Origin: Marsupella aquatica | Lineage: Eukaryota; Plantae; Marchantiophyta | Reading direction: 5' to 3' | Length of the DNA: 64,000 nt | Assembly: GCA_973895155.1 (NCBI GenBank) | Contig: OZ316892.1 | Span: 30,743,702-30,807,701, forward strand | Shown: in pieces, positions 6,414-56,529 of the stretch | Numbering within the stretch: position 1 is the stretch's first letter | Layout of the letters: the number at the start of each line of letters is the position of its first letter | The notes under the pieces: generated by a model | The model's input: the letters and a program-made list of their open reading frames with translations, nothing else | What the model was told of the DNA's origin: nothing | Databases searched by the model: none | Position numbers and translations under genes: made by a program

Positions 6414-8453
6414 TGTAGTATTGCACTAAGGACATAAATCAACATTTAATATCCAAAACTCGGTATTCGATCCCATGGAAGAACAAGAAATGAATGATTT
6501 TTTATCATTTAACACTTATGAATGACTAAGGTCACAAAAACACAGGTTTGAGCCTTTTACTATGATTGCTCAGCAAGACATAGATTTGAATGTTTGCTTA
6601 ACATTGTAAATACAATTAATAAAATGGAAACAAATAACAAAACACAATGAAATCTTGAGGTATGATGAGGGAGTCTGGAAAACACCAAGGTAACTTCTCA
6701 TCAATACTTCATTTAATATGATTTGGGTGGTAAATCCGTAAGAACATTTCTGGAAGGGATTACTATACTAGGATGATTACTAAAATGCCGTCAACACGTC
6801 TCAACTTTTCCTTCCAAAGGTACTCAGAAGAAACTAGTAATCAATCACTTCGATATCCAGTCGGTACTTTGAGTCACGAATAATAAACACCATCATGATC
6901 AAATTGAAGTCATAGGTAATTGGTGAGTAACAATCTTTGCATCCGTGCACAAGCAATGTCATGCCAAAAACTATGCATCAAGAACTCAAGAAGATGGGTT
7001 GTCACCACTTAAGGAATCTATTCCCTCATACTTCTGAGATTCAACTTCATACAAGTAATTTTACTTCAATGATCTAAACTCTCAATCATTCAGACCAAGG
7101 AAGGGAGAAGAATTCCTTTGCATTTGCAAGCTCCATACCATATGAAAACACACGAAAGCTTTGCAAAGGTGATTCCAGTGTTGCAGCACATGCCACAGGC
7201 ACTACTTTATTTCTTCACACTCGAGAATAACACAAATTCTACTTCATATAGGCTAGCAGGAACCCAAGGAGATTGAGATACTGAAAGGACATGCCCTTTC
7301 ATATCTAAAGGGTCTTGAATAAACTTAATGACGGTCATCCTTGAAAAGTGAATGGACACTGCTGAAAGTGTCAAAAATGCAGGGGACTTCTCAAAGCGTC
7401 GAGGTTTGAGCGGACGCTTTGCAAAGCGTCGGTGTTTTTTGGTAAAACTAATAAACAGTGATCTTAATCTAATTTTAACTTCTAAACTAAGAGTTGGAAT
7501 GAGTTGAAACTTTTCTAGGGTACTCTAATACATATAATCTCTATGCTGGCAAAGTTTCAGACTTTTCTGAGATCTCTAAGTGCCTCAAATAAATAGGTAA
7601 AAGTGGTGCAGTGTTATAAAAGTGCGAAAACTAAAAATATTTCTAAGTGTCGAGAACATAGTGGACGTTTCAGAAAGCGTCCAAAACTACAAAGGACTTT
7701 TGTGGACGCTTCAGAAAGCGTCGGCTGAATTTTGAGGTTTGGTCGCAGCGTCTGGCTTCTGGTCTTCAGGCGGGACGCTTCAGTGAGCGTCAGTGTCGAT
7801 GTTGCCTTCGGGGTAGCAGACGCTTCTGTGGGCGTCGCTCCTCATGTGGATTGCAGAGCGTCAGAGTACAACTGGTTGGGTGGCGGACGCTTCAGAAAGC
7901 GTCGTGGTCTTGGGTGGACGCTTTTCAAAGCGTCCAAAACTACAAGGGACGCTTCACAAAGCGTCGGCGAAGTCGCGGCTATGCGAAAAACAGCAAAACT
8001 AAATTAATTTTAACTTTCAAACCACATGTCGGTTTGAGATGAAACTTTCAGGGATGATTCTACTATGTAACTACTAACTCCTGAAAACGTATGAGACTTT
8101 TCTGACCGTGAGAACTATTTAACTAAAATAGCAGAGATTGGCTGATTGTGATAATTGTATACAGAGCTCATTCTTGTTGAAGAAGTGTTTTGGAGTCCGG
8201 TTCTTGAATCTTCTAGTCTGCATTGCTTCTCCAATGACATCCAGTCTTCTTTCTTGGTAGCATGTAAAGAGCAAGGATTTATATTGTCGATCCTTGTCCA
8301 ATATAGGCAATAGCCTCCGATGAAGCATAACATTAGGTAAAGTGTTCGGTTGATCTAAATTACTACAAAAGGTAACTAGATTGCACCTTTGAGTTAGAAA
8401 AAGTTTAAAATTTATAAAATTTTCATCATTTCTAACTAATGTACAGCATTACA
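6414..8453 (-). mobile_element. Solo LTR (2040 bp) related to the nested gypsy family
   Basis: TGTAGT...ATTACA termini and a 5-bp TSD GCAAA (6409-6413, 8454-8458). 7410-7790 is clearly homologous to 19450-19830, including the GGACGCTT-N4-AAGCGTCC palindromes. Confidence 0.8.
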
Positions 8454-9440: not shown

Positions 9441-11448
9441 TTATAGGGTGGTGGGATGGATTACTCGAGGTAGTGGTTTCACAAATACCAATCTGTTTTC
9501 AACTTTAAGATATAAATTACTTGAATCTTGTGGCCAAACTAATGTTCTAGTTCAACTGGTTCATATTTTTGTAATGCTTTACAAACCGAGTGAATCCCCA
9601 TAATGTTAGCGAGGTCCATAATGTTAGATTATATGGTGTTTATGTTCAGTGTTAAAGGCTAGCGATCTCGCTAGTCTTTGGAAGTCTTCAAGATCCAGAC
9701 CAAAACTTTGACTAGGATCTATGTAGTTGAAGTTTGTATGATCAAAACGACGTCAGTATTATGCTAGTGAGATCGCTAGTCTGAGCAATCGAGTTTACGA
9801 TGCAATCTGAGCTATAGTGTTGACGGTAGAGTGCCAGGATGTGTTCTTGGGAGGGAATGTGTTCACTCAAGTTGTTGCAGTAATCCTCTGTTGAATGGAT
9901 TATCTAAAATGAACCTGTAGCAGATTAATCTGAATTGTATAGTTAGTCCTATACTAGCGATATCGCTAGTCTGAGAAGGGTCCATGTTTGTCTCCCAAAT
10001 AAACGACAATCATATTCAAGGGAAATGGGGTAGAAATAAACATACTATGGACAAAATGTCATTCAAGGACAACACACAGAAAAGATAGGAATGCATGAAC
10101 TTTACTTCTTATACATATAATTGAAAGTACATGAGTACATGTCATGCTTTTGAAACTACAAAATTTTGGTAAACCCCACAACCTGACTCTCCACTCAGGG
10201 GCTGGCCGCCTTGTATGCATCGGAGTCAGTGTCTGACTCTGACTCCGAATCGTAATCCAAAGAGGCGAGGCGTTCCTCGGTCCAGTAGTCATGGATCTCC
10301 CTATCAATCCAATACTACTCCTCTTCTGCAAGCCTCTTCCTCTTCGCTACGGCCTCACACTATGTGACATCCACCTTTGGCTTTGGTGGAGACTTTGCGG
10401 CTAGACCTGAGTTTGGAGGAGTTGGTGTTCGCCTCAATGATGATGACGATCCAACCGAATGACCTACTACAGTTGGGACACTGCTATCTGTGGAGACCTT
10501 CACAGTGTTGGCAATGGGTTGACTCTTTGGCGGAGAGTCGTCTTCTAGAGGGCAATCCGTTGCCGGGTTGTAACAACGGACCTCAAGTCGCCATTTCCCT
10601 TGAGGAGGAATGCTTGGAACCCCTGACATGTCTCTGCACTTACGAGAACCAAACAGTGATTAAAAAAATGACATCCGTGAAATGGAAACACTTTTGACGA
10701 TGAAACACTATGAATGCCATGCCTTGTCGGAGAGTTCTTCCCTGAAAAGAGCTCAGAGCCATAGAGCCGCGCGTACTTGAATTAGATCTAGTGAGCGTTG
10801 AGGACTTGAAACACTGATAGCAGTTCCGAATGAACAAGCTCGAGACGGAGGCGGTGGAAGTGATCAGGAGAATGATTCGGAAGACTGGTGGTTTTTGGGT
10901 GATTGGCTTTGTTTAAGTGGACGGTTTGCCTTGGGTTCGCTTCTGGTTTGAACGGTAATTGTCCCGTTCACTCGCAGTGACTTGATTAGTGTCCAAACAG
11001 CCTTAATCCTCCTTGCCTCGACAGTAATGACACGTTGATTCTTGTCACGTGGGAATTGTGCAGTACTTTTTTGTTGTTTCTTTGCCTTGGGTGGGAATTT
11101 TCACATGTGGGAGCCTGTACGTGGAGCCCGTACCTCATGTGAGTGGCTCAATGTGTTGGCGTCATTAGACTAGCGATTTTGCTGGCCTAAAGAAAATGTC
11201 ATTTTGAATGATCGGAAATGGTGGTAAAAACAGGTGTTAAGAGTTGCCTCGTAAAAATGGGTCCACATGTTTTCTTCCAGTGCATTCAAGGGACTAGAAA
11301 ATGCTCATGGTTACGCATTTCTTATGTCATTTTTGTGTCATTATTTAATGATCAAACGGGGTCTTCATGCTAGCAAGGAAGATTCTGGACCTTTTTTGGG
11401 CCCCAATACAAGGGGAAAACTTGCCTGTGCGATCAAAAATTCTACTGT

Positions 11449-14330
11449 TTGCTTGCATGTTACAATTACCCGGACTGGAGACCTTTAACTATGTTGAACA
11501 CCATATACAAGCTGATTGCTAAAATATTGGCACTCCGATTGATTAGGATTCTGCCACAACTTATCAGCCTGCAGCAGACTGGCTTTATCCCTGGGAGAAA
11601 TATTTTGGAAAACATTTCGCTGGTCTGGTTAACCTTTGACTGGCTGAAAAATAGGAAGCATGAGGCCTTATTTCTAAAGCTAGATTTTGAGAAGGCGTTT
11701 GATAGAGTAGAGCACGACTACATATGGGAGACAATGCATTTGTTAGGCATAAGTGGCAATTTTATTAAATTGGTACAGGCACCTTTGACGAATGCAACGT
11801 CAAGGATATATCTAAATGGGATGTTATCCACTGAGATAGGACTTAAAAGGGGAGTTAGACAGGGCTGTCCCCTATCATCGCTCCTGTTTGTAATCTCCAC
11901 GCAGCCGCTAATGGACTTCATGGATGCAGAACTAGCTATGGATAGACTTGCAGGGATACAGGTTTCAGAGGCACTTACAATTTGTTACCGTTTTTTTGCG
12001 GATGATTTGGGGGTGTGTATGCCTGCCACGGAGAGGAACTTTCAATAGGTTACTGCAGTAATTGAATGCTATGAAGCTGCCACGGGGGCCCAACTCAACT
12101 TGAGGAAATTGATAATAATTCCGGTAGTGTTGGGGGACATACCGAGATGGCTCAGAGACACGGGATGTGTGATCAGTGGAAGGGGGAGTTACAAAATTAC
12201 CTTGGGGCTCCTTTAGGTGTTGACTTGAAGACGGAGCAGCTGCACAACTTTGTCCTGGGAAAAATTGGACAGAGACTATCCTCATGGGCGAACAAGCTTC
12301 TGACATTCACAGGACGATCGTTGTTGGTGAGACACATTCTACAGGCTATCCCGATTTATGATTCTATGTTTCTTAAAGCATCCTATGGGTTGGCAAGGAA
12401 AATGACAGCGCTGTGTAGAGACTTCTTATGGGGATATAATGCGGAGAGGGGCGGGCAGGTGCCATTGGTATCTTGGGCCAGGATGTCCCAGCCACAGGCA
12501 GAGGGGGGTTGGGAATTAAGGACTTTAGGAGTCACTTGGATGCGCTGCTGGCAAAATGGTTTACTGGAGTGCTTGATTCCCGGCTTGATTCCCTTGAGTC
12601 AGAATGGGCCAGTATGTTTGCGGAAAACTTAAATCTGATAGGATGGACAAATTACAAAGTGGTACGAAGGAACAATTACTCTTTTCGGGACAAGATGTTG
12701 CTCTGCAGTCTGGGGGCGCTCCATGGATTGGCTTACATGGGAGGACTCTGGAAGGCATGGGATTTACTGCGGTCGAATCTGATATTTTGTCCAACGAAAA
12801 GGATACCGGGTATGTACTCCGGTGCCTGAAGGGCTTTCAATCTTGGAGCAATGTGGATATGGCTGCCACCACAGTGCTCTGCGGGAGATTGGGTATAAGA
12901 TGTATATAGGACCTCTGGTCGGAGGATAGACAGGAGTGGCAAAGGATGGAAGGAAGATGGGAGCATTTGAGGGGACTCACACCTGAGCACCGGACTCTTG
13001 GCAGGAGTTTCATGGAGGCCTTGTATGAAATTGCACAATGTGAGTGGAGATCTGAACCAGGATCCGATTGCTGGTGCTGGGCTGATAATGTTGCCCCTTT
13101 GAAGTGCTTCAAGCTCCCCAATCGTAGGGCTTACCACCTACTTCGACCTGTGCTGGGGGATGCGCCCAGTCTGAACAGGACGTGGGGTACAGGCAAGACT
13201 GAGATGGAATGGAATTGGGCAGGTATGTGGGGGGCAAGCATGTCACTGCGGGCAAAGACCTTTTTGTGGAGAGTAATTATAGCTTTGGGGCTGTTCACTG
13301 GGGAGGGCGGTTAAGATTGGTAAAGGAAGTGGGGATTGCAAGCTATGCCCGGGAATACTTGAGTCCATTCCGCACCTATTTTTGGATTGCCCACATGCAC
13401 AGAAATGTTGGGCTCTCTGTGCACAAGGCTTTAGGGGAATCTTTGCTGGAGACGCTGGGGGACTGATAGGGCTGCTGGATTCTGCTATTGGAAGGCACCA
13501 TAGTAAGACTTTCATGATGGTAGTGCTTTTTCAGATGTTGTGGGCATTGTGGCTGGGGTGTAATGAGCACATGTTCCAGGTAGATGGGTGCCGGAAGGAG
13601 GTGTTTACAAAAGACAGCAAACAGGAAACAGGATTTAATAACAGAAACTGGTAACAGGAAAAAAAACTGGTAACAGGAAAATGGGTGGAAACTTTTTTTG
13701 AAATTTTTTTTTGAGAAAAAAAAAGTTTTTATCTCGGTTGACCAGTTTTTTTTGCTAGCGCCCAAAGCTAGCCAAAAATGTTGCATTGTTATTTTTTTTG
13801 AAAATAACATGTTTTAGGAGATATTTTTAAATTCTCATTTTTCTTGGTAACAGTGATTTTTTCCTGGTAACAGCATATTAAAAACAGGAAAAAAAATTCC
13901 TGTTTACCTGTTTCCTGTCTCCGTCACTATACCCGCCGGAAGTTAGATTTCAGATTCATCCTGTCAGAGGCAGCGGATCATATCTCTGTTGTTTTGATTA
14001 CATTGTCAGTGTGTAACCGGAAAACTCTATTACTGAGGGCTAAGGCAATGATTAATATGGAAAGGATTGCATGGCTGAAGCGTAGGGGTGTATGGATCAC
14101 TTCAGGATAGGCCAATAGGATTGGGGGGAATTTTGGTACAGGTTGACAGCAGCTGCTGCATGCCTGGCTGTTTGGGGGGACTGCTGGCAATTGAGGCGCC
14201 TACGACCCACCTTGTGGTCATCTGGTTTGGGCTACACATTAGCCTCTTTGGTTACTGGGTGTTTGGAATTGTCTATTGGTTATGATTGTCTCCTCTGCCA
14301 TGGGGTTTTCGTGGCCACTATTTAAAAAAA
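11449..14330 (+). mobile_element. 5'-truncated, degraded L1-type LINE (ORF2 reverse transcriptase plus C-terminal zinc finger)
   Basis: DWRPLTMLNTIYKLIAK, QTGFIPGRNI, KLDFEKAFDRV, RGVRQGCPLS, FADD, YLGAPLG and E-x-x-x-HLFLDC motifs across frameshifted ORFs; short A-run near 14323-14330. Both boundaries are approximate. Confidence 0.9.
13598..13934. mobile_element. Non-autonomous DNA transposon (MITE) inserted in the LINE
   Basis: Flanking 8-bp duplication GCCGGAAG (13590-13597, 13935-13942); imperfect inverted ends (AGACAGCAAACAGG / CCTGTTTCCTGTCT); internal GGTAACAG repeats; AT-rich. Confidence 0.75.
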
Positions 14331-18500: not shown

Positions 18501-18581
18501 CTTCTAAAACTCCAAGTGAAATGAGATTTTTCATCATGCTGGGAATATGTCTCACATTCCTCAACGTTCTCACAACACCAT
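15562..18581 (-). pseudogene. pol: Copia pol 3' part: GAG-pre-integrase, integrase, reverse transcriptase and RNase H, with in-frame stops
   Basis: LWHFRLGH/CEHC, LRSDNGGEY, PQQNGVSER, YKARLVAKG, QMDVVTAFL, KSLYGLK, YVDDML, TRPDL and KHIDIRYHF motifs; stops at 18142 and 16663. Confidence 0.95.
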
Positions 18582-20299
18582 TGTCGTATAGCCAAAAGAA
18601 CAAAAAGGAACACTTTTTACATAAAGACTCGGAATACGATCCCTTTAAGAACAGATTTGGAAAGAATTGAATGAATTTATCTCTCTGAGTAATCTAAAGC
18701 TCTCAGCACATAGATTTCTTGTTTCTCACTAAAAGATCAAATAAACAAAACACCAAAGTAAATAAACTTCTGTCTTATGAGTCAAGAGAGAGTCAATTAT
18801 GGTCTGAAAACTCTGATTAGCTATTGCCACTCCTTCAAAAAGGACTATGGTCTTAGAATAGACATAAAACAAGTCTCATAACTCACTAATTTCTCTCCTG
18901 ACTAAATAAAATTGCATGATAAGGAATTTCCAATTTGCTAAACAAGTATTGCTCTGGTTACAAATGTAATGATATGACTTAAGATGCCGGCAACATGGTT
19001 TGACATCAGCGATACGCAATTCCGTCAAACACTAAATCATATTCCATAAACAAAGTAACGGTACTGAATACTCTGAGAACCAAACTTTACTTCTCACATA
19101 TCAAACAACAACTCTTGAATTAGCTAGCGAATCTTGACCCTTCAAGCAAGCCTAGCAGTGAATTCAATGTAAGTCACAGAAGTTTGTAACTGAATTCAAG
19201 TATCAAGAAATTTCTTGAATTCATAAATTCAAACATAAGTTTTACTTCCATACAAGACTTTTCTTGTTAAAATGGAAGGAGGGAAACTAACAGAAGTCTG
19301 ATTGGAATTGTCCCCCCCTTCTTCCGAATGGAAAAACCATGAGGTTTTATAAGTAAAGGTTCCCTTAACTGAAAAGGCATGACTTTTCAAACCTCAAATA
19401 TCTAAAAGACAATCCTAAAAGAAATAAAGAAATGCATTGGAGACTTAGTGGACGCTTTGTAGAGCGTCGGTGCTTTCCGGTAAAACTAATAAACAATGGT
19501 GTTAATCTAATTTTAACTTCTAAACTAAAAGTCGGAATGAGCTGAGACTTTTCTAGAGTACTCTACTACATATAATCTCTATGCTGGTAAAGTTTCAGAC
19601 TTTTCTGAGGTCTCTAAGTGCCTCAAATAAATCGGTGAAAGTGGCACGGTGTTATAAAAGTACGGAAATCAGAAATATTTCTAAGTGTCGGGAAGATAGT
19701 GGACGCTTCAGAAAGCGTCCAAAACTACAAAGGACTTTTATGGACGCTTCAGAAAGCGTCGGCTGAATTTTGAGGTTTGGTCGCGGCGTCCGTCTTCCGG
19801 CCTTCAGGTGGGACGCTTCAGAAAGCGGCGAAGTCTGTCTTGGCGGACGCTTCAGAAAGCGTCGATTCTGCTTTGTCTTCGAACACGGTCGGACGCTTCA
19901 CAAGGCGTCACTTCTCATGTGGACGCTTCAGAAAGCGTCTCATCGGACTTTGGGGTTAGCGGACGCTTCAGAAAGCGTCTTAAAGCGTCCGGTGTCTGGT
20001 TCGAATAGACGTTTCACGAAGCGTCTTCTATTCCGTGGTATCGGTGAAGGACGGCTCAAAAAGCGTCGTGGTTAAGGGGGTCGCATCTGGTTGGCAGCAA
20101 CCGTGGACGCCTCAGCTGTCTTGAGGTTTATTGGCTTTGTAACTGGGGACGCTTCAGAAAGCGTCCTTAGTTAGACTAAGTGAGTTAACCGCCAAATGGA
20201 AAGTAGACGCTTCAGAAAGCGTCGTTTTTGCTCAAAAAGTTTGAAACGATTCAGATTTTTCTCTTATGGTCGTGTTTCAGCAAAAGTCTCCTTTCCACA
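18582..20299 (-). repeat. Gypsy 3' LTR (1718 bp) with an array of about 13 palindromes
   Basis: TGTCGTATAG...TTTCCACA; nearly identical to 30551-32268 (at least 3 substitutions seen). Confidence 0.97.
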
Positions 20300-20316
20300 T
20301 AGCCCTCCACTCAAAA
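20300..20316 (-). promoter_or_regulatory. Polypurine tract of the gypsy element
   Basis: Minus strand TTTTGAGTGGAGGGCTA abuts the 3' LTR. Confidence 0.85.
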
Positions 20317-20400
20317 TTTGCTGTGTCCGCACAAGAAGTGAAATAATATATTTGATCAGGCACTTCTGAAGTGGCTCTTTAATGATGTGGAGTTGTAAAA

Positions 20401-20844
20401 TTACATTGGAGGCCAAGGGTCGAGTAGAGGCAATCGAGCAAGTCCTCTGATAGCGTGGGAGCCTTGAGTGCGAGAAGAGGAATGTAGTTGGAGTCTCTGT
20501 AGCTGTTCTCTGAGTTTAAGCAGATCCTTCTCATACTTATACTGAATTGCATATCCGTCATGAGCAACCCAGACATAGTAACGATAAGGCCATGGATGTT
20601 CTGGAGGTATAGGAGGAAAAGGACAAAGGGTTCTTCGAAGGGTATACACCCAACACCATATTTCATACTCAGAGAATTTATGTCTCCTGTCCTTATCTAT
20701 AGGTGGAACAACTTTAGGAAATTTATACGTAGGAATCAAAGTACGAATGCTGGAGGACATAATCCTGGCAAAACCTGTTGTTGCTGTCTGATACTCTCTA
20801 CTTCCAAATGCCTGAAAGCCATATGGTAGTCTTTCTTGGTCCAA
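20401..20844 (-). CDS. Possible small additional ORF in the gypsy 3' region, function unknown
   Basis: 147-codon open frame (first ATG at MSSSIR) overlapping the end of the accessory ORF; Trp/Tyr/Pro-rich with a short helical tail. No recognised domain. Confidence 0.3.
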   Translation of the reverse strand: MDQERLPYGFQAFGSREYQTATTGFARIMSSSIRTLIPTYKFPKVVPPIDKDRRHKFSEYEIWCWVYTLRRTLCPFPPIPPEHPWPYRYYVWVAHDGYAIQYKYEKDLLKLREQLQRLQLHSSSRTQGSHAIRGLARLPLLDPWPPM

Positions 20845-22826
20845 GAATTAATAGAAGTAAGATTGGGGATAGGAATAGGAGGTGGTAACTCAACCGATCT
20901 CCCTAATTTTGGTGGAATTCGAATAATTCGAGGATCTGCCTCATCCTCACTGCCATCACTTGGCGCACCTATCCATCGAAAAATAACCCCTGGAGTATTG
21001 GAAGGAATCACAGATTCCTTAGCAGGAGGACAAGGTGAAGTCTCAGGAGACAAAGGTGCAATAGTAGGCTGTACTAGCTCTGGAATTGCCCTATCTCCTC
21101 GACCTGCACTGGGTGGTTCGTTTTCTAGCCGTAACTCCTCTGAGTAGGCAGCTACCTGCTCCGAATCGTTATATGGTTCCTGCTCATACTGCTCTTGTAC
21201 CTCAATCTGAGCCTCCACAAAATCTGTAGCAGCATGTAATTCCACCGAATCTTGAGCTTTCCGTAACCTTTTCCATGGTCGACGCCTATAAGTAACTGGA
21301 TACTCATCTCGGGCTCGAGGTGGAGAAGCTGTAAGTGGCGCGTCCAGAGAAGCATATCTCTCAAAATCGTTTGGAGCTGATATGTGCTGAGGTGATGCCC
21401 CAGGACTCTGTTCCGAACTATCATAGCCCATTGGTATTGTGGGTAACCGGGAGATTTGACTTAATCTCTCAGCTAAGTCTTCCGAAATGTCCAATGGTAC
21501 CGCCACCATACTACTACCTTCCTGCTGACTTGAATCATCTCGTTCAGATCTTCGCAAAAAGGAGACATCCTCCTCATCATCAATCTCTACAATTGCATTC
21601 TCACCATCACTTCTTGAAACATCAAAACCTGGTATTCCTAAAGGTTGAATGTCTTGGGGAAAACCAAGGACATCCTGTAAGGGTGGCTGTGGACTCCCAT
21701 TGGAGTATTCATCCGATTGGTAATCCTGTAATGAAGCCAAAGCGTCCGGTCCTTCTGCAGCTAGAGATGGGGATAAACTTGGTAACTCATTCAAAACTAC
21801 ATTTTCTGCAAAAGAAGGTAAAACTGAACCTTCACCTGGTGATTCCGCAGCTGTCTCTGGTTCCTGAATAGCTTCTTCCGGGTTACGCAGAGGGATGGGA
21901 CTCCCACATTGTGAACTGAGCTGGGCCTCGTGCATCAATTCGGCTTCAATATCATGCGAAAGTCGGTCAGCTAGCTCCTCGTCAACTGTAGGAGTGTCCT
22001 CCTCTGGAATTTGAGTGGCCTGCTCATGTGCTTCAACCAAATTTCGGACATTTGGTAACAACTCAGCCTCTTCGCAGTCTAATAAAGTACACAATGCAAT
22101 TAGAGTATCCTGAGGATTGTTGAGTGGCTCATCCGATCGACAACTCACGTCCATTCGCACCTTAGTCCTCAAATTTCGATAAATCCTTTTCTCTGTCGGT
22201 AACAGGCATCGCTTCTTGTAATAAATATGCGCGAAGTAGGGTGTCATTTGCACCTTCCTCAACTTCCTTGCTCTGACTCGACTTCGAAAATTCTTCACCT
22301 GCGCATGGATCACTCTATGTAGGATTTGAGTCCAATTGATGGTCTTCCTCTGTTCCACAGAAAAAATCACAGTGGCCGCAAACGACAAGGTAATACGCGT
22401 TTGACTCTCAGGATGAAAAATAGGGGAGAGGAACCGAAATAAATGCTGCAATCGCGCTTCTATGCAATCTGCCGCCACCCAGCCATTCCGCCTCTTGAAT
22501 GTTCCCGGATAAAACAGAGATTCAACGTAAGCCCTAGGTTCGCCTTCTACTTTTTGTAATCCTTCGCCTACGCTTGGAGTCAAATAAACTGATGAGATGA
22601 GCTCCTCATTCCAATTGCTTGGCCTCGCGCGTATCTCCGGTCCTTCCTCTCCGTCCCATTCGCCTCGATCGATCAAGCTGAATTCACAAATACTCCAAGG
22701 AAACTTTAGGAGATTCTTCAAGCCCATAGTCGTCAAATCCTCTCGTAGTCGCCTTCGATCATCTATTCCTAATGGAATCACAACAACTATCGGACGCGCA
22801 GTGACTTCTAGCTCCGATTCCGCCAT
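20736..22826 (-). CDS. Intact 696-aa gypsy accessory protein (PMD-like N-terminal domain, acidic disordered C-terminus)
   Basis: ATG-initiated and uninterrupted, between integrase and the 3' LTR on the same strand as pol; homologous to 3832-5517. Confidence 0.85.
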   Translation of the reverse strand: MAESELEVTARPIVVVIPLGIDDRRRLREDLTTMGLKNLLKFPWSICEFSLIDRGEWDGEEGPEIRARPSNWNEELISSVYLTPSVGEGLQKVEGEPRAYVESLFYPGTFKRRNGWVAADCIEARLQHLFRFLSPIFHPESQTRITLSFAATVIFSVEQRKTINWTQILHRVIHAQVKNFRSRVRARKLRKVQMTPYFAHIYYKKRCLLPTEKRIYRNLRTKVRMDVSCRSDEPLNNPQDTLIALCTLLDCEEAELLPNVRNLVEAHEQATQIPEEDTPTVDEELADRLSHDIEAELMHEAQLSSQCGSPIPLRNPEEAIQEPETAAESPGEGSVLPSFAENVVLNELPSLSPSLAAEGPDALASLQDYQSDEYSNGSPQPPLQDVLGFPQDIQPLGIPGFDVSRSDGENAIVEIDDEEDVSFLRRSERDDSSQQEGSSMVAVPLDISEDLAERLSQISRLPTIPMGYDSSEQSPGASPQHISAPNDFERYASLDAPLTASPPRARDEYPVTYRRRPWKRLRKAQDSVELHAATDFVEAQIEVQEQYEQEPYNDSEQVAAYSEELRLENEPPSAGRGDRAIPELVQPTIAPLSPETSPCPPAKESVIPSNTPGVIFRWIGAPSDGSEDEADPRIIRIPPKLGRSVELPPPIPIPNLTSINSWTKKDYHMAFRHLEVESIRQQQQVLPGLCPPAFVL

Positions 22827-23160
22827 CGCTCAGTCAGCAATCTCTTCTGGCGCAGCTCCACTCTTCCCTCAATCAGGGTCGCCACCTCCTCTATATCAAT
22901 CATCGGTAATGAGCGCTACTAAACTTGGTTTCAAAAACCACTCGTCGTTTCTCTTCTTCGACCCATTAGACGTCACAATCCCTTGCCGTACTTGAGATCA
23001 TTCCAAAATTTCAACTTGTGCTGGACGCTTCAGAAAGCGTCTCAAAAAAAATTTTAAAAAAAATTTTCCAAACATAATCTTTTAATCTACTATTCTAAGC
23101 CCTTCCATACTAGTATTTCTTACAGATATAAAATATACCTATCCCAGCCCTCCACTCAAA

Positions 23161-26100
23161 CTACGACATGTCCTCATGCGCGGAATAGAAGTGATAGGGC
23201 TTTAATCTAAAGCCATTAATTCTAGTGTCTAAGGGGGATCCATCTAAAGTGGTTAAGGATACAGAACCATTAGGCCATATGTTCTCAATTCGATAAGGGC
23301 CGATCCAATGGGTATGTAATTTACCCGGAAAAAGCATGTAGCGGGAATCAAAAACTAACACTAAATCATTATTAGCTAGCTTAACCTGTTTAAGCTTTTT
23401 ATCATAAGAGTGTTTCCGGTTTGCTTGGACTACAGCAGTATGTTCTAAGGCTAAAAGTCTATTTTCTTCTAATTTCATAATATCAACAAACCGACTCTCG
23501 ATACTTGCTTCAAGGGTGAATCTCTCAGGAATAAGTAAGCGCTCAGTAGGAATGGAAAACTCAATAGGGATAATACTATCAACCCCATAAGTTAAATAAA
23601 ATGGGGTTCTAATTAAGGGTGGTAATCTTTTCAGCAGTACGGTAAGCCCAAAGCGCAGAGTGCAATTTTACATCCCAGTCAGTCTTGTGAGATTCCACCA
23701 TCTTATTCAGAATCTTGCCCATAATGCCATTAGCTCTCTCCGTTAAGCCATTAGCTCGGGGGTTGTAAGGAGTAGTTTTGCGATGCTTGATAAGATATAT
23801 GTCAGTAATTAACTCAATAGTTGAGTTAAGAAAATGTAGACCCCTATCGCTGACCAACTCCAAAGGACACCCGAACCGAGTAATAATATGCTCAAAGAGA
23901 AAAGCAGCCGCTGTTGTAGCATCATTCTTGCGAGTGGCTTTAGCCTCCACCCATTTGGTGGCATAATCAGTGGCCAGAATAATGTATTTGCTACGACTTT
24001 TCTTAGCGGCTGGTGAAATTGGGCCTACAAAATCAATACCCCATTTCTCAAAGGGGGCCAAAGGAAGGATGGGAGTGAGTGGCCATTTAGAAGATGCAGT
24101 GGGTTTGCCTACTCGTTGGCATGGATCACAGGTTTTAATAAAATTGTAGGTGTCCTTGTGCATTGTGGGCCACCAATATCCGGCATCTTGAATTTTCTTA
24201 ACAGTGGTGGTAACTGCATAGTGTCCGCCTGTCTCACCAGAATGTAAGGCTGCAATTACCTGTGGAATTTCTCTCATCTCAAGGCAACGCCGTAACCTTT
24301 GATCAGGGCCTTGCTTAAATAAGGTGCCTTTGATAATTGTATAAGGACCTACCTTATGTGCAAAAACAGCCTTCTCCTCTGCATTAAGTCCTTCTGGAAA
24401 GACCCCATACAGCAACATCTTCACAATATCAAAATATTTTGAGGACTCGCCTTCAATGTGCCAAAGGTGCTCATCCGGAAAGTCGTCAGACAGGTTGTGG
24501 TCATTCTCTGTACCTGGAAGTCTAGACAAGAAGTCGGCATTCTCATGGTGTTTCCCTGGACGGACTTGCACCTCGTAATCAAATTCCTGAAGCAGGAGGA
24601 CCCATCTAGCCACCCTCCCCGACAGGTCAACTTGATTAACCAGGTATTTCAAAGAATGATGGTCCGTGTGAAAGATGATCTGATATCCAAGAAGATAATG
24701 ACGAAACTTTTTGCAGGCAAAAACAATGGCTAAGGCTTCTCTTTCGGTAACTGTATAGTTTTTCTCAGCAGCACTCATCTGCCTACTGGCATAATAAATG
24801 GGATGATCCCTATTGTCGTCATCCTTTTGACTCAAGTTAGCTCCGATGCAGAAGGCAGATGAGTCAATGAAAACATGAAACTTCCTACTCCAATCTGGTG
24901 GGGAGAGAATGGGCGCAGTCACAAGGCGGTCCTTTAGTGTTTGAAAAGCTTGCTGTCTTTCTTCATTCCAAACATAAGGTTCATTTTGTTTGAGCAATTT
25001 GGTCAGAGGCATAGCAATATCAGCATGTTTATGAATGAATCTGCGATAATACCCGACATGCCCTAAGAAGGCACGGAGTTGCTTCAAATCCGTCGGAGGT
25101 TGAAGTTCCACGATCACCCGGACCTTTTCTTTGTCCACCTCTATGCCACGCTGAGAAATGACATGGCCGAGCAAGATACCTTCCTGCATTCCGATGAAGC
25201 ACTTCTCGGGGTGTAAGCACAATTGAGCTTCCCGACACTTCTGGAAAGTCTTATCGAGGTGCATTAAATGGTCAGCCGCCGATCCATACACACAGAAATC
25301 ATCGATGAAGATCTCCATGAAGTGCCGAAGGTACTCCTGAAAAATAATCATCATGATACGCTGAAAAGTGCCTGGGGCATTACACAACCCAAATGGCATC
25401 ATTGCATACGCATATGTACCCCAATCTGTTGTGAACGTGGTCTTGTCCCGATCCTCCTTTCGAATGGAAACCTGGTTGTACCCAGAGTATCCGTCCAGAA
25501 AAGTATACAACTCATGCAATGCGACCTGATCAAGCACTAGATCTATGAAGGGTAAGGGATAATGGTCCTTCCTGGTGGCTGCATTCAATTTCCGATAGTC
25601 CTAACACACGCGGATTTTTGTCTTTCCATCAGGTCCCGCCTTCTTGGGTACAATGACAATGGGGGATACCCATTCACTACTCAAGACGGGGTAGATGAAA
25701 CCAGCAGCAGTCAACTTATCCAGCTCCTCCTTCACAAGGACAGAGTACTTGGGGTTCAAACGGTACTGCCTTTGACGGACTGGCACTGCCCCTTCCATCA
25801 AGTCTATCCGATGCTCTCCCAGATGAGGGTGGATGCCCTTCAAATCTGAATGACTCCATGCAAAAACATCCTTGTACTGGGTCAACAACTTAATGTACAA
25901 GTCCCGCAACTCACCCTGGATATGCTTTCCTATATTAAGGAACTTGCCAGGTTCAATCTCAACTTTTTGACAAGCCTTAGGGTCCACTATACCATCCGTT
26001 AGGCCTGCTGGCCTAAGCTCCAAATCACCAACATCAGACTCACTGATTTCCGGAGAGGGAGGGTGTTTTCCATTACCGGAGGATACGCCATGCATTTGCT

Positions 26101-26173
26101 GATCTGAGAATTGTTTCCCTGTATCATGGCCGACTCCTTGTAAGTTTGCTTTCTCCCCTTCCGGTGGAAATTG
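23161..26173 (-). pseudogene. pol: Gypsy pol: RT, RNase H and integrase, with an in-frame TAG at 25601 and a frameshift near 23610
   Basis: SEWVSPIVIVPKK, FLDGYSGYNQ, MPFGLCNAP, FIDDF, DSSAFCIGA, TDHHSL, H...GH...CDPC, WGIDFVGP, SDRG, NGLTER and W-x-GPY motifs. Confidence 0.95.
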
Positions 26174-29100
26174 TCAAAAAGGGTCCTCAGAAGCTAATCC
26201 AGTCTCCACAACTGGATCAGATAGGTAAACCTCCAAATAGCGTACCTCCTCCAACTCAAACTCCAATGGCTCCAGAATCAGGTTGGAATCCGAAAAGTCT
26301 GACGTATACCCGTCGTCAGTTTGCGTCTCGCCCTTATGATCCTCAGTAGCCCAACTCACCACCACCTTGGGTTTACCAAAAGACATCTCTTGAGCTTTCC
26401 AATTTACCTGCACTTGGGCTTTATACAACCAGGGGCGGCCTAACAAGACTGGAAAGCTGGAAGGTACCTCTGGACTTATTATCACATATTCAAAAGTAAA
26501 TGGAACACCAGCAATCAGAGTATCTACCTTACTTAATTTTCCCGCGGGAACAACTCGAGATTGGTCCGCCATGCGCAGGATCTTGGGTGTTGGTTCAAAC
26601 TTAGTAAATCCAAGATTAAATGCAGTTTGCTGAGTCATGAGGTTGACGCTGGAACCACCATCCACTGGTACTCTCCTCACAACACATCCTTGAATTTGTA
26701 CGTCCAGCTCTGGTGGTCCCTTATCCTCCCATTCCAAACGTAATACATCCACCTCTGGCAACTTACGCCGCCTTCGCTTTCCTGCCAACAATCCTCTCAA
26801 TTGGCGTCTATAAACCGGGTTGTCTTGCAACAACTCACCAATGGTGATATGAGCAAGATGGCCCTTCACGTCTTCTACAATATCATATCCCTGTTGCTTT
26901 AACACAGGTCGTTCGGGCTCCTTCACCACTGACTTCTGAATTGAATGCGAGGTGTGATCTTTAACTAGTTCCTCTAATTGAGCTTTTACTTCTGAAGAAA
27001 TGTCAGGTAAAAAATATTTGGGATCATAGCGATCATAAGCTGGGTCCTGATCCTTGGGTAGGCCTTCCTCAAATGGAGCTCGTTCCTTCGGCTTAGGTCC
27101 CTTCTTTTGGTGCTTCGCTACTGCTCGTTTCTCCTCTTTCCGCTTGGAACGAGTAGTTGCATAGGTATCCGTTAGAACTTTATCCCGATCCTGAACTCGA
27201 GCATTAGGCATGCCCACCACCCCTGGCTTCACCAAGTGATCCACTAACACATCAGGAACAATTCCGGCCAGTGGTTGAGCAAACGTGGAGTGGCCTGTCA
27301 CTTCCACTCTGTTCACATCCCCATGGTGGATCATTCCACAATGCTCAACCTCTTCAGAGTACACCATCCTCACTTTAGCCTCTGGTCTGATTGTCTCCTT
27401 GACAGGCTCTTGAGCAAAGCGAACCATCATTTTTGTTTTAGGCGGATTTGGACATTCCACAGGCAAGTGCCCTTCCTTGCCACAATTTCCACATATAGGG
27501 GTGTATCCCTCTTCTCTCTTCGGATACGGACATTGCGGTGAGTAGTGGTCCGGCTGACCGCAATTCCAACAGGATCCTTTCTGCCGTGGAGCTCCTCTAG
27601 GGGGGTATCCTCCTGGAGGTCCCATAGGCGGCCTGGGAACAGGTCTGTTGAAGGCAGGTTTTGGCGGTACCCAATTATTCATTGGTGGAGGGGCAGGTGG
27701 GAAATACTGACCTCCTGGTGTTGCCTGAACTGCATATGCCGGCTCGTATTCATAATCTTCTACCTCCTCCGGTCCTTCCAAGTAATTTACTGCCATACGC
27801 CAATTTGGGCACTCCGTCGGATAGTGCCCTTGCTGATTACAATGGGTACACCACACGTTTGTCCTCATGGTTGGTGGTAATCTTCGCACAGGTTTCACCG
27901 TAGCAATATGTACATTCAGCTTAGATAGCTTCCCGGTTATTTCCTCCATCATGCGATCCATTTTTTTCTGAGTAGAAGTCTTAGGCTCTACCTTCGAGGT
28001 TGACTTCTTCTTCTTGGAGGCGGACTGTTCCGAATCTGAACTAGAACTAGAGCTAGCGCTCGCACTAGTGCTTGAATCCGTACTCTCATCGTCTTCACTA
28101 CTGCTGCTGTCACTATCGTCCTTCTCCGAATCAGATTTAGACTTTGATTTTTTCTTCTTTTTCCTCTTATCTTTCTTCAAGTCTTTCCTCACTCGCTTTT
28201 TCTCAGAAATTTCAGAATCCACATACTTCTGCGCTGATTCCTGAACTTCCTCCAAAGTAGTACCACCTTCACGCCTGACATATCGAGCAATTCGTGACGG
28301 CAATCCGTTGATAAACCAATCCTTCACAGTAGACTTAGATGTGGCTGGATTATATTGGTCCACCAAATCCAACAGTTTATCCGCATATTTCCTCACAGAC
28401 CCATGTTTCTTCATGTGTAAATGAGAGATCCTAGCAAAAGCTCGAGCGGCAGACCCCTCCTCTTTGTACTTAGCCAAGAAGGCAGCCTTCAACTTACCCC
28501 AGTCATGTTTATCTGGAAAGCGATCATACCACTTTTGAGCTCTCTTCTTCATCAGTCCACCAAATAAATTAGCCTTTTCCGCATCTTGGCTTTGTCCATT
28601 TGAAGCTGCAGCAGCTTCAAATTCCTTCAAATAGACTTCTGCATCCTCTTTAGATGATCCAAAGAATCTATCATATCTCACATTGTTACGAGCCATTATA
28701 GTAGGACTTAGATTAGGGATGGGCAAGGCAGATCGGATGGCAAACGGATTAGTCCAAGTTTGAGGACTTAATACAATAGAACTACTAGATTCTGAACTAC
28801 TGCCGGAGCTCTTCTCGCCTGAAGACGACCCTTCTGATGAATTAAATGCTGTGAAGCCTTCAAGTTCTTCTAGAGTTGGATTCTGTTGTAAAATCCCTTC
28901 GACATCTGATGGTTTCCTTGAATGCTGTGGTGGACCAATCAACTTGGGTCCGGATCGCAAATTCACATATAAGGGTCTACTGGGTGCAGGATTTTCCAGA
29001 GTCCCTTGGGTTACCCTAGTCTGAATGGAGGTTACCTTCCTTGTCACACTTCCCGGTAAAGGGAATTCTGATGCTTGAAACTCAGACAGGAGGTCTCGAG

Positions 29101-29182
29101 GCTCCACTGCCTTGCTCGAGGATTCTGATTTATAAGAAGCTTTCCTCCATTTCTTTTTGATTTGGCGAGCTTCCTCCGACAT
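26174..29182 (-). CDS. gag: Gypsy gag-protease polyprotein (1002 aa)
   Basis: Capsid-like region, three CCHC knuckles (CTHCNQQGHYPTEC, CWNCGQPDHYSPQC, CGNCGKEGHLPVEC) and a retropepsin motif VDGGSSVN...LLGRPWL. Confidence 0.93.
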   Translation of the reverse strand: MSEEARQIKKKWRKASYKSESSSKAVEPRDLLSEFQASEFPLPGSVTRKVTSIQTRVTQGTLENPAPSRPLYVNLRSGPKLIGPPQHSRKPSDVEGILQQNPTLEELEGFTAFNSSEGSSSGEKSSGSSSESSSSIVLSPQTWTNPFAIRSALPIPNLSPTIMARNNVRYDRFFGSSKEDAEVYLKEFEAAAASNGQSQDAEKANLFGGLMKKRAQKWYDRFPDKHDWGKLKAAFLAKYKEEGSAARAFARISHLHMKKHGSVRKYADKLLDLVDQYNPATSKSTVKDWFINGLPSRIARYVRREGGTTLEEVQESAQKYVDSEISEKKRVRKDLKKDKRKKKKKSKSKSDSEKDDSDSSSSEDDESTDSSTSASASSSSSSDSEQSASKKKKSTSKVEPKTSTQKKMDRMMEEITGKLSKLNVHIATVKPVRRLPPTMRTNVWCTHCNQQGHYPTECPNWRMAVNYLEGPEEVEDYEYEPAYAVQATPGGQYFPPAPPPMNNWVPPKPAFNRPVPRPPMGPPGGYPPRGAPRQKGSCWNCGQPDHYSPQCPYPKREEGYTPICGNCGKEGHLPVECPNPPKTKMMVRFAQEPVKETIRPEAKVRMVYSEEVEHCGMIHHGDVNRVEVTGHSTFAQPLAGIVPDVLVDHLVKPGVVGMPNARVQDRDKVLTDTYATTRSKRKEEKRAVAKHQKKGPKPKERAPFEEGLPKDQDPAYDRYDPKYFLPDISSEVKAQLEELVKDHTSHSIQKSVVKEPERPVLKQQGYDIVEDVKGHLAHITIGELLQDNPVYRRQLRGLLAGKRRRRKLPEVDVLRLEWEDKGPPELDVQIQGCVVRRVPVDGGSSVNLMTQQTAFNLGFTKFEPTPKILRMADQSRVVPAGKLSKVDTLIAGVPFTFEYVIISPEVPSSFPVLLGRPWLYKAQVQVNWKAQEMSFGKPKVVVSWATEDHKGETQTDDGYTSDFSDSNLILEPLEFELEEVRYLEVYLSDPVVETGLASEDPF

Positions 29183-29236
29183 ACCTCATTCTTAGCAATA
29201 GTAAAACTTCTCTCCCCAGTTAATTGTCTTGCTACA

Positions 29237-29590: not shown

Positions 29591-30523
29591 CTTTCAATGC
29601 CACTCAAATTTTGAGAAAACACCCACTACAGATGGAAGCGGTCACCTTGGCTTTTCCCAAGGGGCATGCCTCTTGCACCTTGTGTCGAGGGATTCGAACA
29701 GGTATGTCCATTCAACTCTTGGGAATCCAAAGTGTCTGGAAACCCATTCAATGCCTTGGAGATCTTCTCCTGACCCCTCTTCATATCCTTCTTTGGCTAG
29801 GTTTACCGCAGCACTTCCTATCTCATCCCCCTATTGGGCCCCATTTCACCTTGAAGCATTGTACTAGCCAATTCCGAAATAGAAATTACAGTATATCTCT
29901 CCTGAGTAATCCTACCATTTAATCTCAGCATTACCAAATGCAAATTCAAACCTTCCCACCATATTATGGACAGCCAATGAACTCCCCTTCTACCCCTCAC
30001 ACTTAACACCCATGTTTGCACATATTGATTATGCAAATTCCTAACTCGTAGGGAGCCTAATGATCTAATGGGTGGGGGCATTCTTCAAGAATCCTCCACC
30101 CCTAAGGTTGGCTTACAGCCTAAGTATCTCAATAATTTTTAGCATTGGCTCTAACACTTATCCTAAACAAATTGATCTCTTCAATAAAAAGGGTAAAACT
30201 CTTTCCAAACTTCACCTATAATCCACTGATTATCTTAATCTCGATTCCTACACACAGAAATCTCTTTCTTCACATGGAAATCAAGCACCCTTGAGGCTAT
30301 CCTTTTTGGCCTTAATTTCCTTCCTTCTCCTTCTCCTATTAAGGAGGGCTTCCTCCCTCATCATCTCCCGGAAAGCTTCCGGGGCATTTGCTAGGGTGAA
30401 GGGTCGAACCTCCAGCACCTGAATTGGCCATTGTCCTGAATCTTCCATTAAGTAACTCCTTCTGACCAATTCAACCTCCTCGGTTGGCATTCACTGCCTT
30501 GATATCAATCCATTCCATACTGT

Positions 30524-30541
30524 TCCCCGGCAGCGGCGCCA
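30524..30541 (-). promoter_or_regulatory. Primer-binding site, tRNA-Asp type
   Basis: Minus strand TGGCGCCGCTGCCGGGGA, 9 nt after the 5' LTR end. Confidence 0.9.
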
Positions 30542-30550: not shown

Positions 30551-32268
30551 TGTCGTATAGCCAAAAGAACAAAAAGGAACACTTTTTACATAAAGACTCG
30601 GAATACGATCCCTTTAAGAACAGATTTGGAAAGAATTGAATGAATTTATCTCTCTGAGTAATCTAAAGCTCTCAGCACATAGATTTCTTGTTTCTCACTA
30701 AAAGATCAAATAAACAAAACACCAAAGTAAATAAACTTCTGTCTTATGAGTCAAGAGAGAGTCAATTATGGTCTGAAAACTCTGATTAGCTATTGCCACT
30801 CCTTCAAAAAGGACTATGGTCTTAGAATAGACATAAAACAAGTCTCATAACTCACTAATTTCTCTCCTGACTAAATAAAATTGCATGATAAGGAATTTCC
30901 AATTTGCTAAACAAGTATTGCTCTGGTTACAAATGTAATGATATGACTTAAGATGCCGGCAACATGGTTTGACATCAGCGATACGCAATTCCGTCAAACA
31001 CTAAATCATATTCCATAAACAAAGTAACGGTACTGAATACTCTGAGAACCAAACTTTACTTCTCACATATCAAACAACAACTCTTGAATTAGCTAGCGAA
31101 TCTTGACCCTTCAAGCAAGCCTAGCAGTGAATTCAATGTAAGTCACAGAAGTTTGTAACTGAATTCAAGTATCAAGAAATTTCTTGAATTCATAAATTCA
31201 AACATAAGTTTTACTTCCATACAAGACTTTTCTTGTTAAAATGGAAGGAGGGAAACTAACAGAAGTCTGATTGGAATTGTCCCCCCCTTCTTCCGAATGG
31301 AAAAACCATGAGGTTTTATAAGTAAAGGTTCCCTTAACTGAAAAGGCATGACTTTTCAAACCTCAAATATCTAAAAGACAATCCTAAAAGAAATAAAGAA
31401 ATGCATTGGAGACTTAGTGGACGCTTTGTAGAGCGTCGGTGCTTTCCGGTAAAACTAATAAACAATGGTGTTAATCTAATTTTAACTTCTAAACTAAAAG
31501 TCGGAATGAGCTGAGACTTTTCTAGAGTACTCTACTACATATAATCTCTATGCTGGTAAAGTTTCAGACTTTTCTGAGGTCTCTAAGTGCCTCAAATAAA
31601 TCGGTGAAAGTGGCACGGTGTTATAAAAGTATGGAAATCAGAAATATTTCTAAGTGTCGGGAAGATAGTGGACGCTTCAGAAAGCGTCCAAAACTACAAA
31701 GGACTTTTATGGACGCTTCAGAAAGCGTCGGCTGAATTTTGAGGTTTGGTCGCGGCGTCCGTCTTCCGGCCTTCAGGTGGGACGCTTCAGAAAGCGGCGA
31801 AGTCTGTCTTGGCGGACGCTTCAGAAAGCGTCGATTCTGCTTTGTCTTCTAACACGGTCGGACGCTTCACAAGGCGTCACTTCTCATGTGGACGCTTCAG
31901 AAAGCGTCTCATCGGACTTTGGGGTTAGCGGACACTTCAGAAAGCGTCTTAAAGCGTCCGGTGTCTGGTTCGAATAGACGTTTCACGAAGCGTCTTCTAT
32001 TCCGTGGTATCGGTGAAGGACGGCTCAAAAAGCGTCGTGGTTAAGGGGGTCGCATCTGGTTGGCAGCAACCGTGGACGCCTCAGCTGTCTTGAGGTTTAT
32101 TGGCTTTGTAACTGGGGACGCTTCAGAAAGCGTCCTTAGTTAGACTAAGTGAGTTAACCGCCAAATGGAAAGTAGACGCTTCAGAAAGCGTCGTTTTTGC
32201 TCAAAAAGTTTGAAACGATTCAGATTTTTCTCTTATGGTCGTGTTTCAGCAAAAGTCTCCTTTCCACA
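30551..32268 (-). repeat. Gypsy 5' LTR (1718 bp)
   Basis: Direct repeat of 18582-20299. Confidence 0.97.
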
Positions 32269-33534
32269 ACCATGAAACATCTGAAATCTTACAGATCCAA
32301 GTCCAACAACTTGACATGGGATTCCATTTCCCATCAACACTGACCCGTTGGAAACCGTGTAAGAACTGAAACAATCTCTCCTAGAGCAAATGTGAAAAGT
32401 ACATGCACTATCTAGAATCCAGTCATCACTACCTGGATTTGACACTACGTTGAGAGCATAACCTTGACATCACAATATGTCATCATCATCGAGTAAATCT
32501 ACCTCATGCAAGCTCGATGCCGCATTAGCAGAGGCAGTAGGGACCTTTACTCGACAATCCCTTTTCATATGGCCAGGCTTGCCACAATTCCAACATGCAA
32601 GAGGCTTCCTCTCTTGCGATTTCCCTCTGGTTTTAGATCTCCCCCGTGATGTAGATCTAAACCTGTTCTGCCCATTCGTGCGCTGCGCTGCTCTTCCCCT
32701 GTTCACATTCAGCGCAGTGCCAGAAGAAGATGCTGTCTGTGATAGACCCAGCTTCTTCTGAGCATCATCAGACAGTAATGAGCTCACCACCTCATTATAC
32801 GAAATGGACTTCAAATCTCTGTACAAGAGCACCTGTTTCAAGCCCTGATAAGACGGCGGTAAGGAGCTTAGCAGAAGCAAGGCCTTATCCTCATCTTCAA
32901 CTCCTTTTCCCAGGTTTGATAGATCCACCGCTAGACTGTCAAATTCATCCAGGTGATCCTACATCTTGCTCCCTTCCTTGAGCCTAAGGCTCATCAAGAG
33001 AGACTTCTTGTACAGCCGGTCTGACGCATCTTCCCGGTAGTACTTCTCTCTTAGAGCCTTGAACAGTGATGTGCAATCCGCATAATCATCCAGCTGCTTG
33101 ATGATGTGCGGCTTGAGATATAGCATCACTGCATTGACAGCAATCACCTGCTCCCGTCTCCACTGTCTCAAAGAAATCTCCTCCTCTCCATCATACTGTT
33201 CTCGCGAAGAGAGCAGAGGAGCTAAGCCCATGGCCCGTAGAACACCCTTCACTTGCTTCTCCCATAGCAAGTAGTCAGTACGACCATCGTACTTCTCCAC
33301 TTCAAACTTTACTCCTCCAAATCTAGCCATCTCCCTCTTCTTCCCTACTACTGACAGCTCTGGTAGTAACACAGCTTCCTCCACTGCACGCCGCACCGGT
33401 GATCGTACCGGTGTCACTAGTTCTTCCTCAAACGGTAGCAGCTCCTCCTCAGACTCTCCGTCTGACCGTCGCGATCCTGAAGCTCCACCGACACCAATTC
33501 TTCCAGTATCCTCCGAGTCACTCATATGAAACAA
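32269..33534 (-). pseudogene. gag: Copia gag and protease (5' part of the polyprotein), with in-frame stops
   Basis: EVEKYDGRTDYLLW, LLLLSSLPPSY, CWNCGKPGHMKRDC and WILDSACTFH; stops at 32959 and 32470. Confidence 0.92.
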
Positions 33535-49140: not shown

Positions 49141-49255
49141 TGTGATGCCTAGCCAGGAATCACTCGGCCAGTTAAGTGGGTAAAGCAGGAATGCACCCTG
49201 GAAACACCTTAGTATAGGGATAAAACAAGGAAAATATAAACAATTAGGGGCGACT

Positions 49256-56103: not shown

Positions 56104-56529
56104 CCATGCATCCCGAAATCAATTTCTCAATCACCAATCCCGTCACCCGTGGCAATGTCAATTCCCTGGCCCGAAACAGCCCCCGTAGCCCGATCACTTA
56201 AATTCTCTCAATTTCCCGTCACTACTCCGTGCGGCCGCCACTAATGCCTGGAAGAATGACGCCAGCAAGCCCCACTAATCCACCATGAAAGAGAGAGCTT
56301 CAAAAATAATTAGAATCTGGAGAGAGCTTCCGGCAAGAGAGAGAAGAACCCCGTTTTTGCTTTCGGCAATGAGAGGGTCGTGCAAAAGGAAGAGGGAAAG
56401 AAAAAGGAAGGAAAAAAAAATAGAACCGAAAAAACTCCTGGCGCCTTCGCCATGCGCCCCGGCCCATTTCTCGGGCCTTACCCTTGCGTCCTCCTGCGCG
56501 CGGCCCTCTGCAGGGCGCGCGGCCATTCC

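Follow-up and report, generated by a model that had tools for sequence, protein, structure and literature searches.

Why would a long terminal repeat (LTR) retrotransposon carry an exact second copy of its polypurine tract (PPT) directly behind the integrase gene? The question is raised by a 64,000-nt stretch of the Marsupella aquatica genome, hereafter the window, in which one 15-mer occurs exactly twice, both times on the minus strand, at positions 20301–20315 (outer PPT) and 23146–23160 (inner PPT). The first-pass annotation of this DNA had noticed the duplicate and its contact with the integrase stop codon (23161–23163, minus strand), both of which we could confirm, with a zero gap between tract and stop. 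It took the inner copy for a possible relict LTR boundary, and named a second plus-strand priming site as the alternative. The latter fits best with our results, as the site is conserved and has the same upstream hairpin as the outer PPT, without an attachment site. In the reading that we favour, with moderate confidence, the inner PPT is likely a maintained second site of plus-strand priming, the same position likely marks where the LTR of a sister family begins, and the LTR boundary would have moved across an accessory gene.

The duplicate PPT belongs to a young Ty3/gypsy retrotransposon of 13,687 nt (internal region, 10,235 nt) on the minus strand, which is inserted in a copia pol. The 5′ LTR (30551–32268, minus strand) and the 3′ LTR (18582–20299, minus strand; 1718 nt, TG...CA) differ at three of 1718 nt, and a 5-nt target site duplication (TSD), ACCAT, is found at 18577–18581 and 32269–32273. 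The primer binding site (PBS; 30523–30541, minus strand) agrees at 17 of 19 nt with the tRNA-Asp PBS given for the peanut element FIDEL. Pfam identified gag, zinc knuckle, reverse transcriptase (RT), RNase H and integrase in the gag-pol region (23161–29185, minus strand), which is interrupted three times, by stop codons near 26174 and 25601 and by a frameshift near 23610. The order of gag, protease (the motif was recognised by eye only), RT, RNase H and integrase between the LTRs, together with the TSD, PBS and PPT, assigns the element to Ty3/gypsy. Membership of the Sireviruses, which have the Ty1/copia domain order, was ruled out, as the integrase comes after RT and RNase H. The Pfam scan, which took in every long ORF of the element, detected a single RNase H and no additional one, and this feature and the tRNA-Asp-type PBS are those of the Athila clade (Neumann 2019). 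In the pol tree, which in its quick version holds 55 rows after the thinning of near-copies and was built without curated Athila/Tat references, the element clusters with rows from liverworts and metagenomes, and the angiosperm rows stand apart. Among named organisms, the liverworts Riccia and Calypogeia supply its closest relatives in pol, and the closest of all are metagenome proteins (68–81%). The window also contains a fragment about 80–90% alike to the LTR of the element, with eight palindromes (7409–7970), a plus-strand RT fragment (11374–12048), and a PLS-type PPR gene of the RNA-editing factor type (38733–42239), which has seven tandem repeats of 303 nt as well as E and DYW domains.

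Judged from the LTR pair and the TSD, the genuine 3′ PPT is the outer copy, which is followed by A and the TGTGG of the LTR (the attachment site). The 15-mer is the sole exact 15-nt repeat of the element outside the palindrome family described below, and the inner and outer tracts agree at 16 of 18 positions when compared over a slightly longer stretch. Both tracts are preceded by a predicted hairpin. The outer one, with the core TG-CGGA-CA (20324–20331, minus strand), lies 8 nt upstream of its PPT; the inner one (23167–23178, minus strand), with the core TG-AGGA-CA, falls within the last integrase codons at the same spacing. The two hairpins have the TG-NGGA-CA core in common and differ in their stems. 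Searching both strands for the motif gave five such cores in the window, and the combination of core and tract only at these two PPTs. The location of the inner hairpin in coding sequence is what could be expected if the duplicate reflected protein constraint; chance or an assembly artefact might also be invoked. Nevertheless, the PPT itself sits after the stop codon, an inner copy of the 15-mer is expected by chance only 1.2e-5 times in the 10,235-nt internal region, and the duplicate is present in contigs of several runs as well as in distant relatives. We regard these explanations as refuted, with a practically negligible probability remaining.

At a true LTR boundary, a PPT is followed by two bases and a TG that matches the other LTR end. 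Such an arrangement is absent from the inner site of the window, which is situated just past the coding frame, 67% of the way along the element; family copies read GGG or AGG behind the tract, then a TA-rich run, with no TG in the attachment register and no attachment site. Likewise, the proposed resemblance between the bases behind the inner PPT and the LTR start did not hold up: shuffled sequences reached the anchored score in 19, 61, 83, 148 and 151 of 1000 cases at 20, 30, 50, 100 and 150 nt, respectively, and the relatives do not carry the five matching bases. The sole strong local match between the two regions is an LTR-type palindrome, which was correctly placed at +105 from the inner PPT as against +77 in the LTR. 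The arithmetic of the earlier proposal is also sound, as priming from the inner PPT would yield an LTR of 4,564 nt (~4.5 kb in the first-pass annotation).

Is the inner tract maintained? The stretch was present in five runs of three studies, none recorded as RNA, and contigs of X1–X4 (two studies) were aligned to 22880–23280, with 32 of 59 pieces listed. Ten listed divergent pieces (84–88% identity; four runs, two studies) begin to align where the PPT ends, at 23143 or 23146. Positions 23146–23176 showed no difference among 40 listed of 45 rows, against 21 variable places in 23177–23239 (Fisher's test, P = 1e-4), a value that is optimistic because (i) the invariant 31-nt block was chosen post hoc and half of it is integrase coding sequence, and (ii) the contigs are k-mer assemblies, which break at shared 30-mers, and subfamilies recur between runs. 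The change listed at 23177 disrupts one outer stem pair of the inner hairpin. A subfamily contig of X1 and X2 can be aligned to the PPT and, after 270 unalignable letters, again to the palindrome and the ORF leader. The suggested check of conservation across copies accordingly came out positive, with no listed change in the tract among relatives of 84–88% identity.

These observations bear on the possibility that the inner PPT is an inert relic of the boundary of a long-LTR ancestor, with 20316–23145 being former U3. We consider this distinctly improbable, and the term relict to be unsupported, as the tract has no listed change while the next 107–270 nt are unalignable in the same relatives, the same layout recurs at 69% identity in a distant relative (L001, below), and any likeness to the LTR start is not significant. 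Even if the ancestor did possess a long LTR, which we think a little less probable than the contrary, the site would nonetheless have been kept in use. Long-LTR variants of the window's own family were sought as flank-type loose ends at 23145, and none was seen among 20 listed of 28 rows, albeit this test is weak and had no positive control, the true LTR start also giving none among 24 listed of 227 rows. Near-identical contigs of X1 and X3 had depths of 1735 and 400 for the LTR, 741–1104 and 150–191 for the accessory region, and 594 and 136–190 for the spacer and integrase end. These depths look like those of short LTRs, which we take only as a hint, as contig depth does not equal copy number.

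Behind the inner PPT lies an AT-rich spacer (23068–23145, minus strand), which is beyond alignment in ~85% relatives, and then a 28-nt unit (23019–23046, minus strand) including an 18-nt palindrome (23024–23041). The palindrome is identical to copies in the LTR: 11 GACG-N-CGTC palindromes are listed within the first 850 nt of the 3′ LTR and one in the spacer, and half-sites number 20 in the 1718-nt LTR versus none in 6025 nt of gag-pol. The main family type has two of the 28-nt units with 141 nt between them, and exceeds the window copy by 169 nt at this place. In record 2 of X1, letters 1–100 align to 22947–23046, and the letters from 242 onwards to 23019–23280; the overhangs of X2 record 7, X3 record 16 and X4 record 22 agree with the longer spacer. 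Judging from these alignments, one palindrome unit out of two or more has disappeared from the window copy, and its single spacer palindrome is therefore a peculiarity of this copy. The palindromes behind the inner PPT probably duplicate the regulatory boxes of U3 inside the element, in the service of the accessory gene.

Alternatively, the cassette might have been kept for a job other than priming, namely as an internal promoter, a splice or RNA-processing signal of the accessory gene, or a hot spot of template switching. The LTR-type palindromes are indeed found before the ORF and not in gag-pol, and the Sirevirus authors propose an internal promoter and call the role of upstream PPTs unclear (PMC2829016). 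Still, such a job leaves unexplained why the inner tract copies the element's own outer tract and its hairpin spacing, and we hold it to be unlikely.

The spacer contains another conspicuous feature, an A4T8A4T8 tract (23044–23067, minus strand; +79 to +102 relative to the inner PPT), which comprises the only AnTm runs (n, m ≥ 4) of the element and might, speculatively, be a termination signal. The CTS of HIV is an A/T tract as well. A lentivirus-like pair of central PPT (cPPT) and CTS would consist here of the inner PPT and this tract, which would halt strand displacement after about 100 nt and leave a DNA flap. The distance is comparable to that in HIV, where termination occurs after about 100 bp (PMC3227589), and the A/T pattern is retained in X1, X3 and X4 despite variable run lengths. 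On the other hand, the site is off-centre at 67% of the element, the spacer has diverged in subfamilies, only one similar run was seen by eye in L001 and none in L006, and AT-rich stretches also occur behind the true attachment sites of L003–L005. We therefore find a cPPT/CTS pair quite unlikely.

The gene between the two PPTs is an intact ORF of 696 aa from Met (20736–22826, minus strand), which has a ~240-aa N-terminal domain in common with relatives. Pfam scans gave no family for this domain. Language-model features alone suggest a Transposase_32/ATHILA-like domain (Atlas matches of 0.90–0.91 with 155–167 shared features), and these may serve as leads only. No transmembrane stretch was detected in the protein, of which the maximum Kyte-Doolittle value over 19 aa is 1.07; the maxima in four accessory homologues are 0.84–1.30, and the transmembrane segment of Athila env-like elements is accordingly not found in them. 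A second accessory homologue, with stop codons, is present on the plus strand of the window (3916–5518, within 3300–5760), antisense to a gag that runs from 1897 downward (PBS at 2201, minus strand), and clusters of AACCGG-type palindromes flank it on both sides.

We scanned metagenomes for distant relatives and kept 80 of 521 loci, 41 of which extend to the integrase stop. A clear accessory homologue was found behind the integrase in L001–L004 (tblastn) and L005 (HMM, 5e-7), and a weak one in L006 (1e-4). In all six of these loci, a purine tract lies no more than 90 nt from the integrase stop, and three of them (L001, L004 and L006) extend beyond the ORF. L001 is a whole element with 69% pol identity and the same two-PPT layout as the window: the integrase stop, an inner PPT with AGG, a 745-aa ORF, an outer PPT with ATGTG, a 1-kb LTR, and the same PBS. 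Its inner tract matches its own outer tract at 15 of 18 positions, and the window and L001 tracts match each other at 10–11 of 18. L006 possesses two hairpin-PPT cassettes around a 557-aa ORF, of which the tracts match at 9 of 18 positions and the inner one is followed by TGT. Hairpins of the G-NGGR-C type precede the PPTs in L003–L007 and the outer sites of L001 and L006, and the NGGA core is absent at the inner tracts of L001 and L002. The tract of L002 is followed by GTGG. The two-PPT layout is not universal because in L007, of a moss-like clade, hairpin, PPT and TGT come immediately behind the integrase with no ORF of at least 200 aa right behind, and because L011, L015, L017 and L018 have an ORF after the integrase with no purine tract visible.

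The exact pattern of hairpin core plus PPT gave no match in the metagenome contigs. No relatives were found among viral contigs, and two loci were found in contigs of prokaryote genomes. Locus L081 is a plant-type gypsy pol (52% identity) in a contig binned as Stigonema, which is likely plant contamination of the metagenome-assembled genome. Two relatives display motifs of their own. In L001, a family-specific AGCGCT-type motif is clustered at 637–693, 4130–4202, 5076–5124, 6748–6796 and 7992–8024; the clusters fall in the LTR, both ahead of and within the accessory ORF, in the 5′ leader and within pol. L003 has 89 CCGGA-type sites throughout. It is attractive to speculate that a protein of the anti-silencing type, encoded by the element or by the host, binds at such motifs.

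The first-pass annotation had asked for relatives of which the LTR starts at the inner PPT. None was seen in the window's own family with the weak test above, and L003–L005 are likely to be such relatives in a sister clade. Behind their integrase they have a terminal-type cassette, after which comes ATGTGG or ATGAGG, i.e., an attachment site, and then an AT-rich stretch, a cluster of CG palindromes and the ORF, with a TATA-like box before the ORF in L004 and L005. The contig of L003 (64% identity) includes the last 164 nt of the 5′ LTR before the PBS, and the 9 nt after the post-integrase PPT form a perfect inverted repeat of this LTR end. Both 9-mers are unique in the contig, and the corresponding inverted repeat is 3 nt in the window and L001. 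The arrangement expected of a true LTR boundary is thereby found at the post-integrase position in L003. We infer that the LTR of L003, neither copy of which is whole on the contig, begins right after the integrase and includes the ORF, and a second terminal PPT is possible behind this ORF. In L004, no second PPT was found in the 215 nt past the ORF, the corresponding gap in the window being 435 nt. Taken together, a homologous accessory gene likely resides inside U3 in L003–L005. The same data offer what can be said for an inert relic in the window: its inner PPT occupies the position of the putative LTR start of L003–L005, its AT-rich stretch, palindromes and ORF follow in the order seen behind their attachment site, and the GTGG of L002 resembles a worn attachment site. 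A hint of U3 likeness also comes from the X3 contig with the 169 extra letters, of which a 97-letter piece was placed, at an unstated identity, on the LTR up to 20225.

In which direction did the boundary move? In a careful tree of RNase H-integrase (21 rows), L003–L005 are sister to the clade of the window (88/88), with L001 outside and L006 further out. Given these positions, one change suffices if two PPTs are ancestral. A grouping of the window and L001 clades without L003–L005 was not rejected (p-AU 0.141). We lean, by a modest preference only, towards two PPTs as the ancestral state and the long LTR as the derived one. The converse, in which 20316–23145 once was U3 in the lineage of the window, runs against parsimony at this tree support and p-AU (0.14), and would be somewhat less probable.

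How a second priming site could work can be outlined as follows. According to PMC7197481, an RNase H-resistant PPT primes the plus strand, and internal PPTs can prime as well. RNase H would leave an RNA primer at both PPTs of the window element. The outer primer would give rise to strong-stop DNA and set the 1.7-kb LTR, while the inner primer would copy the final 4.6 kb in parallel and the jumped strand would cover the first 9.1 kb. Products starting at the inner PPT should be unable to integrate because they have no attachment site, following an argument made in PMC2829016. If an attachment site were gained at the inner cassette, or the outer one lost, the LTR would start there and the accessory gene would come to lie in U3. 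L003–L005 would be the outcome of such a shift of the boundary to the post-integrase PPT.

That priming from the inner PPT could move genes into or out of LTRs was suggested in the first-pass annotation. The attachment site of L003–L005 and the 9-nt inverted repeat of L003 speak for this part of the suggestion, and the failure to find a long-LTR variant in the own family, by the weak test mentioned, does not. More generally, the two PPT cassettes around the accessory gene might act as a switch in this gypsy clade of bryophyte type. The LTR would begin at the cassette with the attachment site, the gene would enter or leave U3 together with a promoter driven by the palindromes, and the long form would spread free-standing copies of the gene through the genome by way of its solo LTRs. 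We put forward this extension tentatively, at slightly below an even chance.

Coding LTRs do exist in the neighbourhood, as had been claimed: the window contains nested coding LTRs across 49141–62541. One solo LTR (52579–61272, minus strand), with a 1225-aa ORF and the target duplication GCTGC, lies within an LTR of its own family, which is followed by a PBS at 62546 and gag. A 4-kb solo LTR (53136–57164, minus strand), with a 623-aa ORF and the target duplication ATGAC, is nested in the former. The ORF of the 52579–61272 family is weakly homologous to the accessory domain (hhalign 73%, E 3e-5), and no kinship with this domain was detectable for the 623-aa ORF.

The young, high-copy family of the window offers a precise and testable site, and its sister families display both end states, the gene between two PPTs and the gene inside the LTR. 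If the boundary switch is genuine, LTRs coding over several kilobases can arise without capture of outside genes, the doubled dose of the accessory gene and its persistence in solo LTRs are explained, and LTR annotators may misplace boundaries in such clades.

Genes in U3 are familiar from sag of MMTV, the overlapping nef of HIV and bel of foamy viruses. As in these cases, the accessory ORF would be downstream of a terminal PPT and doubled per element in L003–L005, and this state is shown by target duplications for the two solo LTRs of the window. The ORF of the window element differs in being outside the LTR, between two PPTs. Similar to the central PPT of HIV-1, PPT2 of Ty1 and EVADE of Arabidopsis, for which cPPT intermediates are described (PMC7197481), the inner PPT repeats the 3′ PPT internally, close to where integrase ends, is conserved, and is a proposed second plus-strand origin. 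Unlike the central PPTs of HIV-1 and Ty1, it is right after the stop codon at 67% of the element, not inside pol near the centre, and would be a putative primer only. The window element also resembles the Tat clades Z1 and Z2 of liverworts in its OTA-type pol without additional RNase H and its liverwort relatives; the available portions of PMC10508981 and PMC13468544 make no mention of PPTs or LTR ORFs for these clades.

One extra PPT is on record for Athila4 and Calypso, Ty3/gypsy elements of the Athila clade, as cited in PMC2829016, and the window element is like them in this regard. It differs from both in having an accessory protein without a transmembrane stretch and in its nearest named pol relatives, Riccia and Calypogeia. 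The same source reports for Sireviruses an average of four PPTs, identical upstream PPTs without attachment sites, 56 of 63 of them located after ENV and a few ahead of this ENV-like gene, and LTR palindromes that recur upstream of ENV, and calls the role of extra PPTs in plant retrotransposons unclear (PMC2829016). The window element has the linker architecture described there, with an identical upstream PPT that lacks an attachment site and CG-rich palindromes both in the 5′ half of the LTR and before the accessory gene. In the plant literature covered, which did not extend to survey supplements and key Athila papers, we found no description of an LTR boundary that moves from one PPT to another past an accessory gene. 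Extra PPTs, like LTR-type palindromes ahead of an accessory ORF, are already known from Athila4, Calypso and the Sireviruses, and the boundary switch would be the new twist: unlike the Sireviruses, which belong to another superfamily, the window element has one upstream PPT, next to the stop codon of integrase, and this PPT appears to serve a sister clade as its LTR start.
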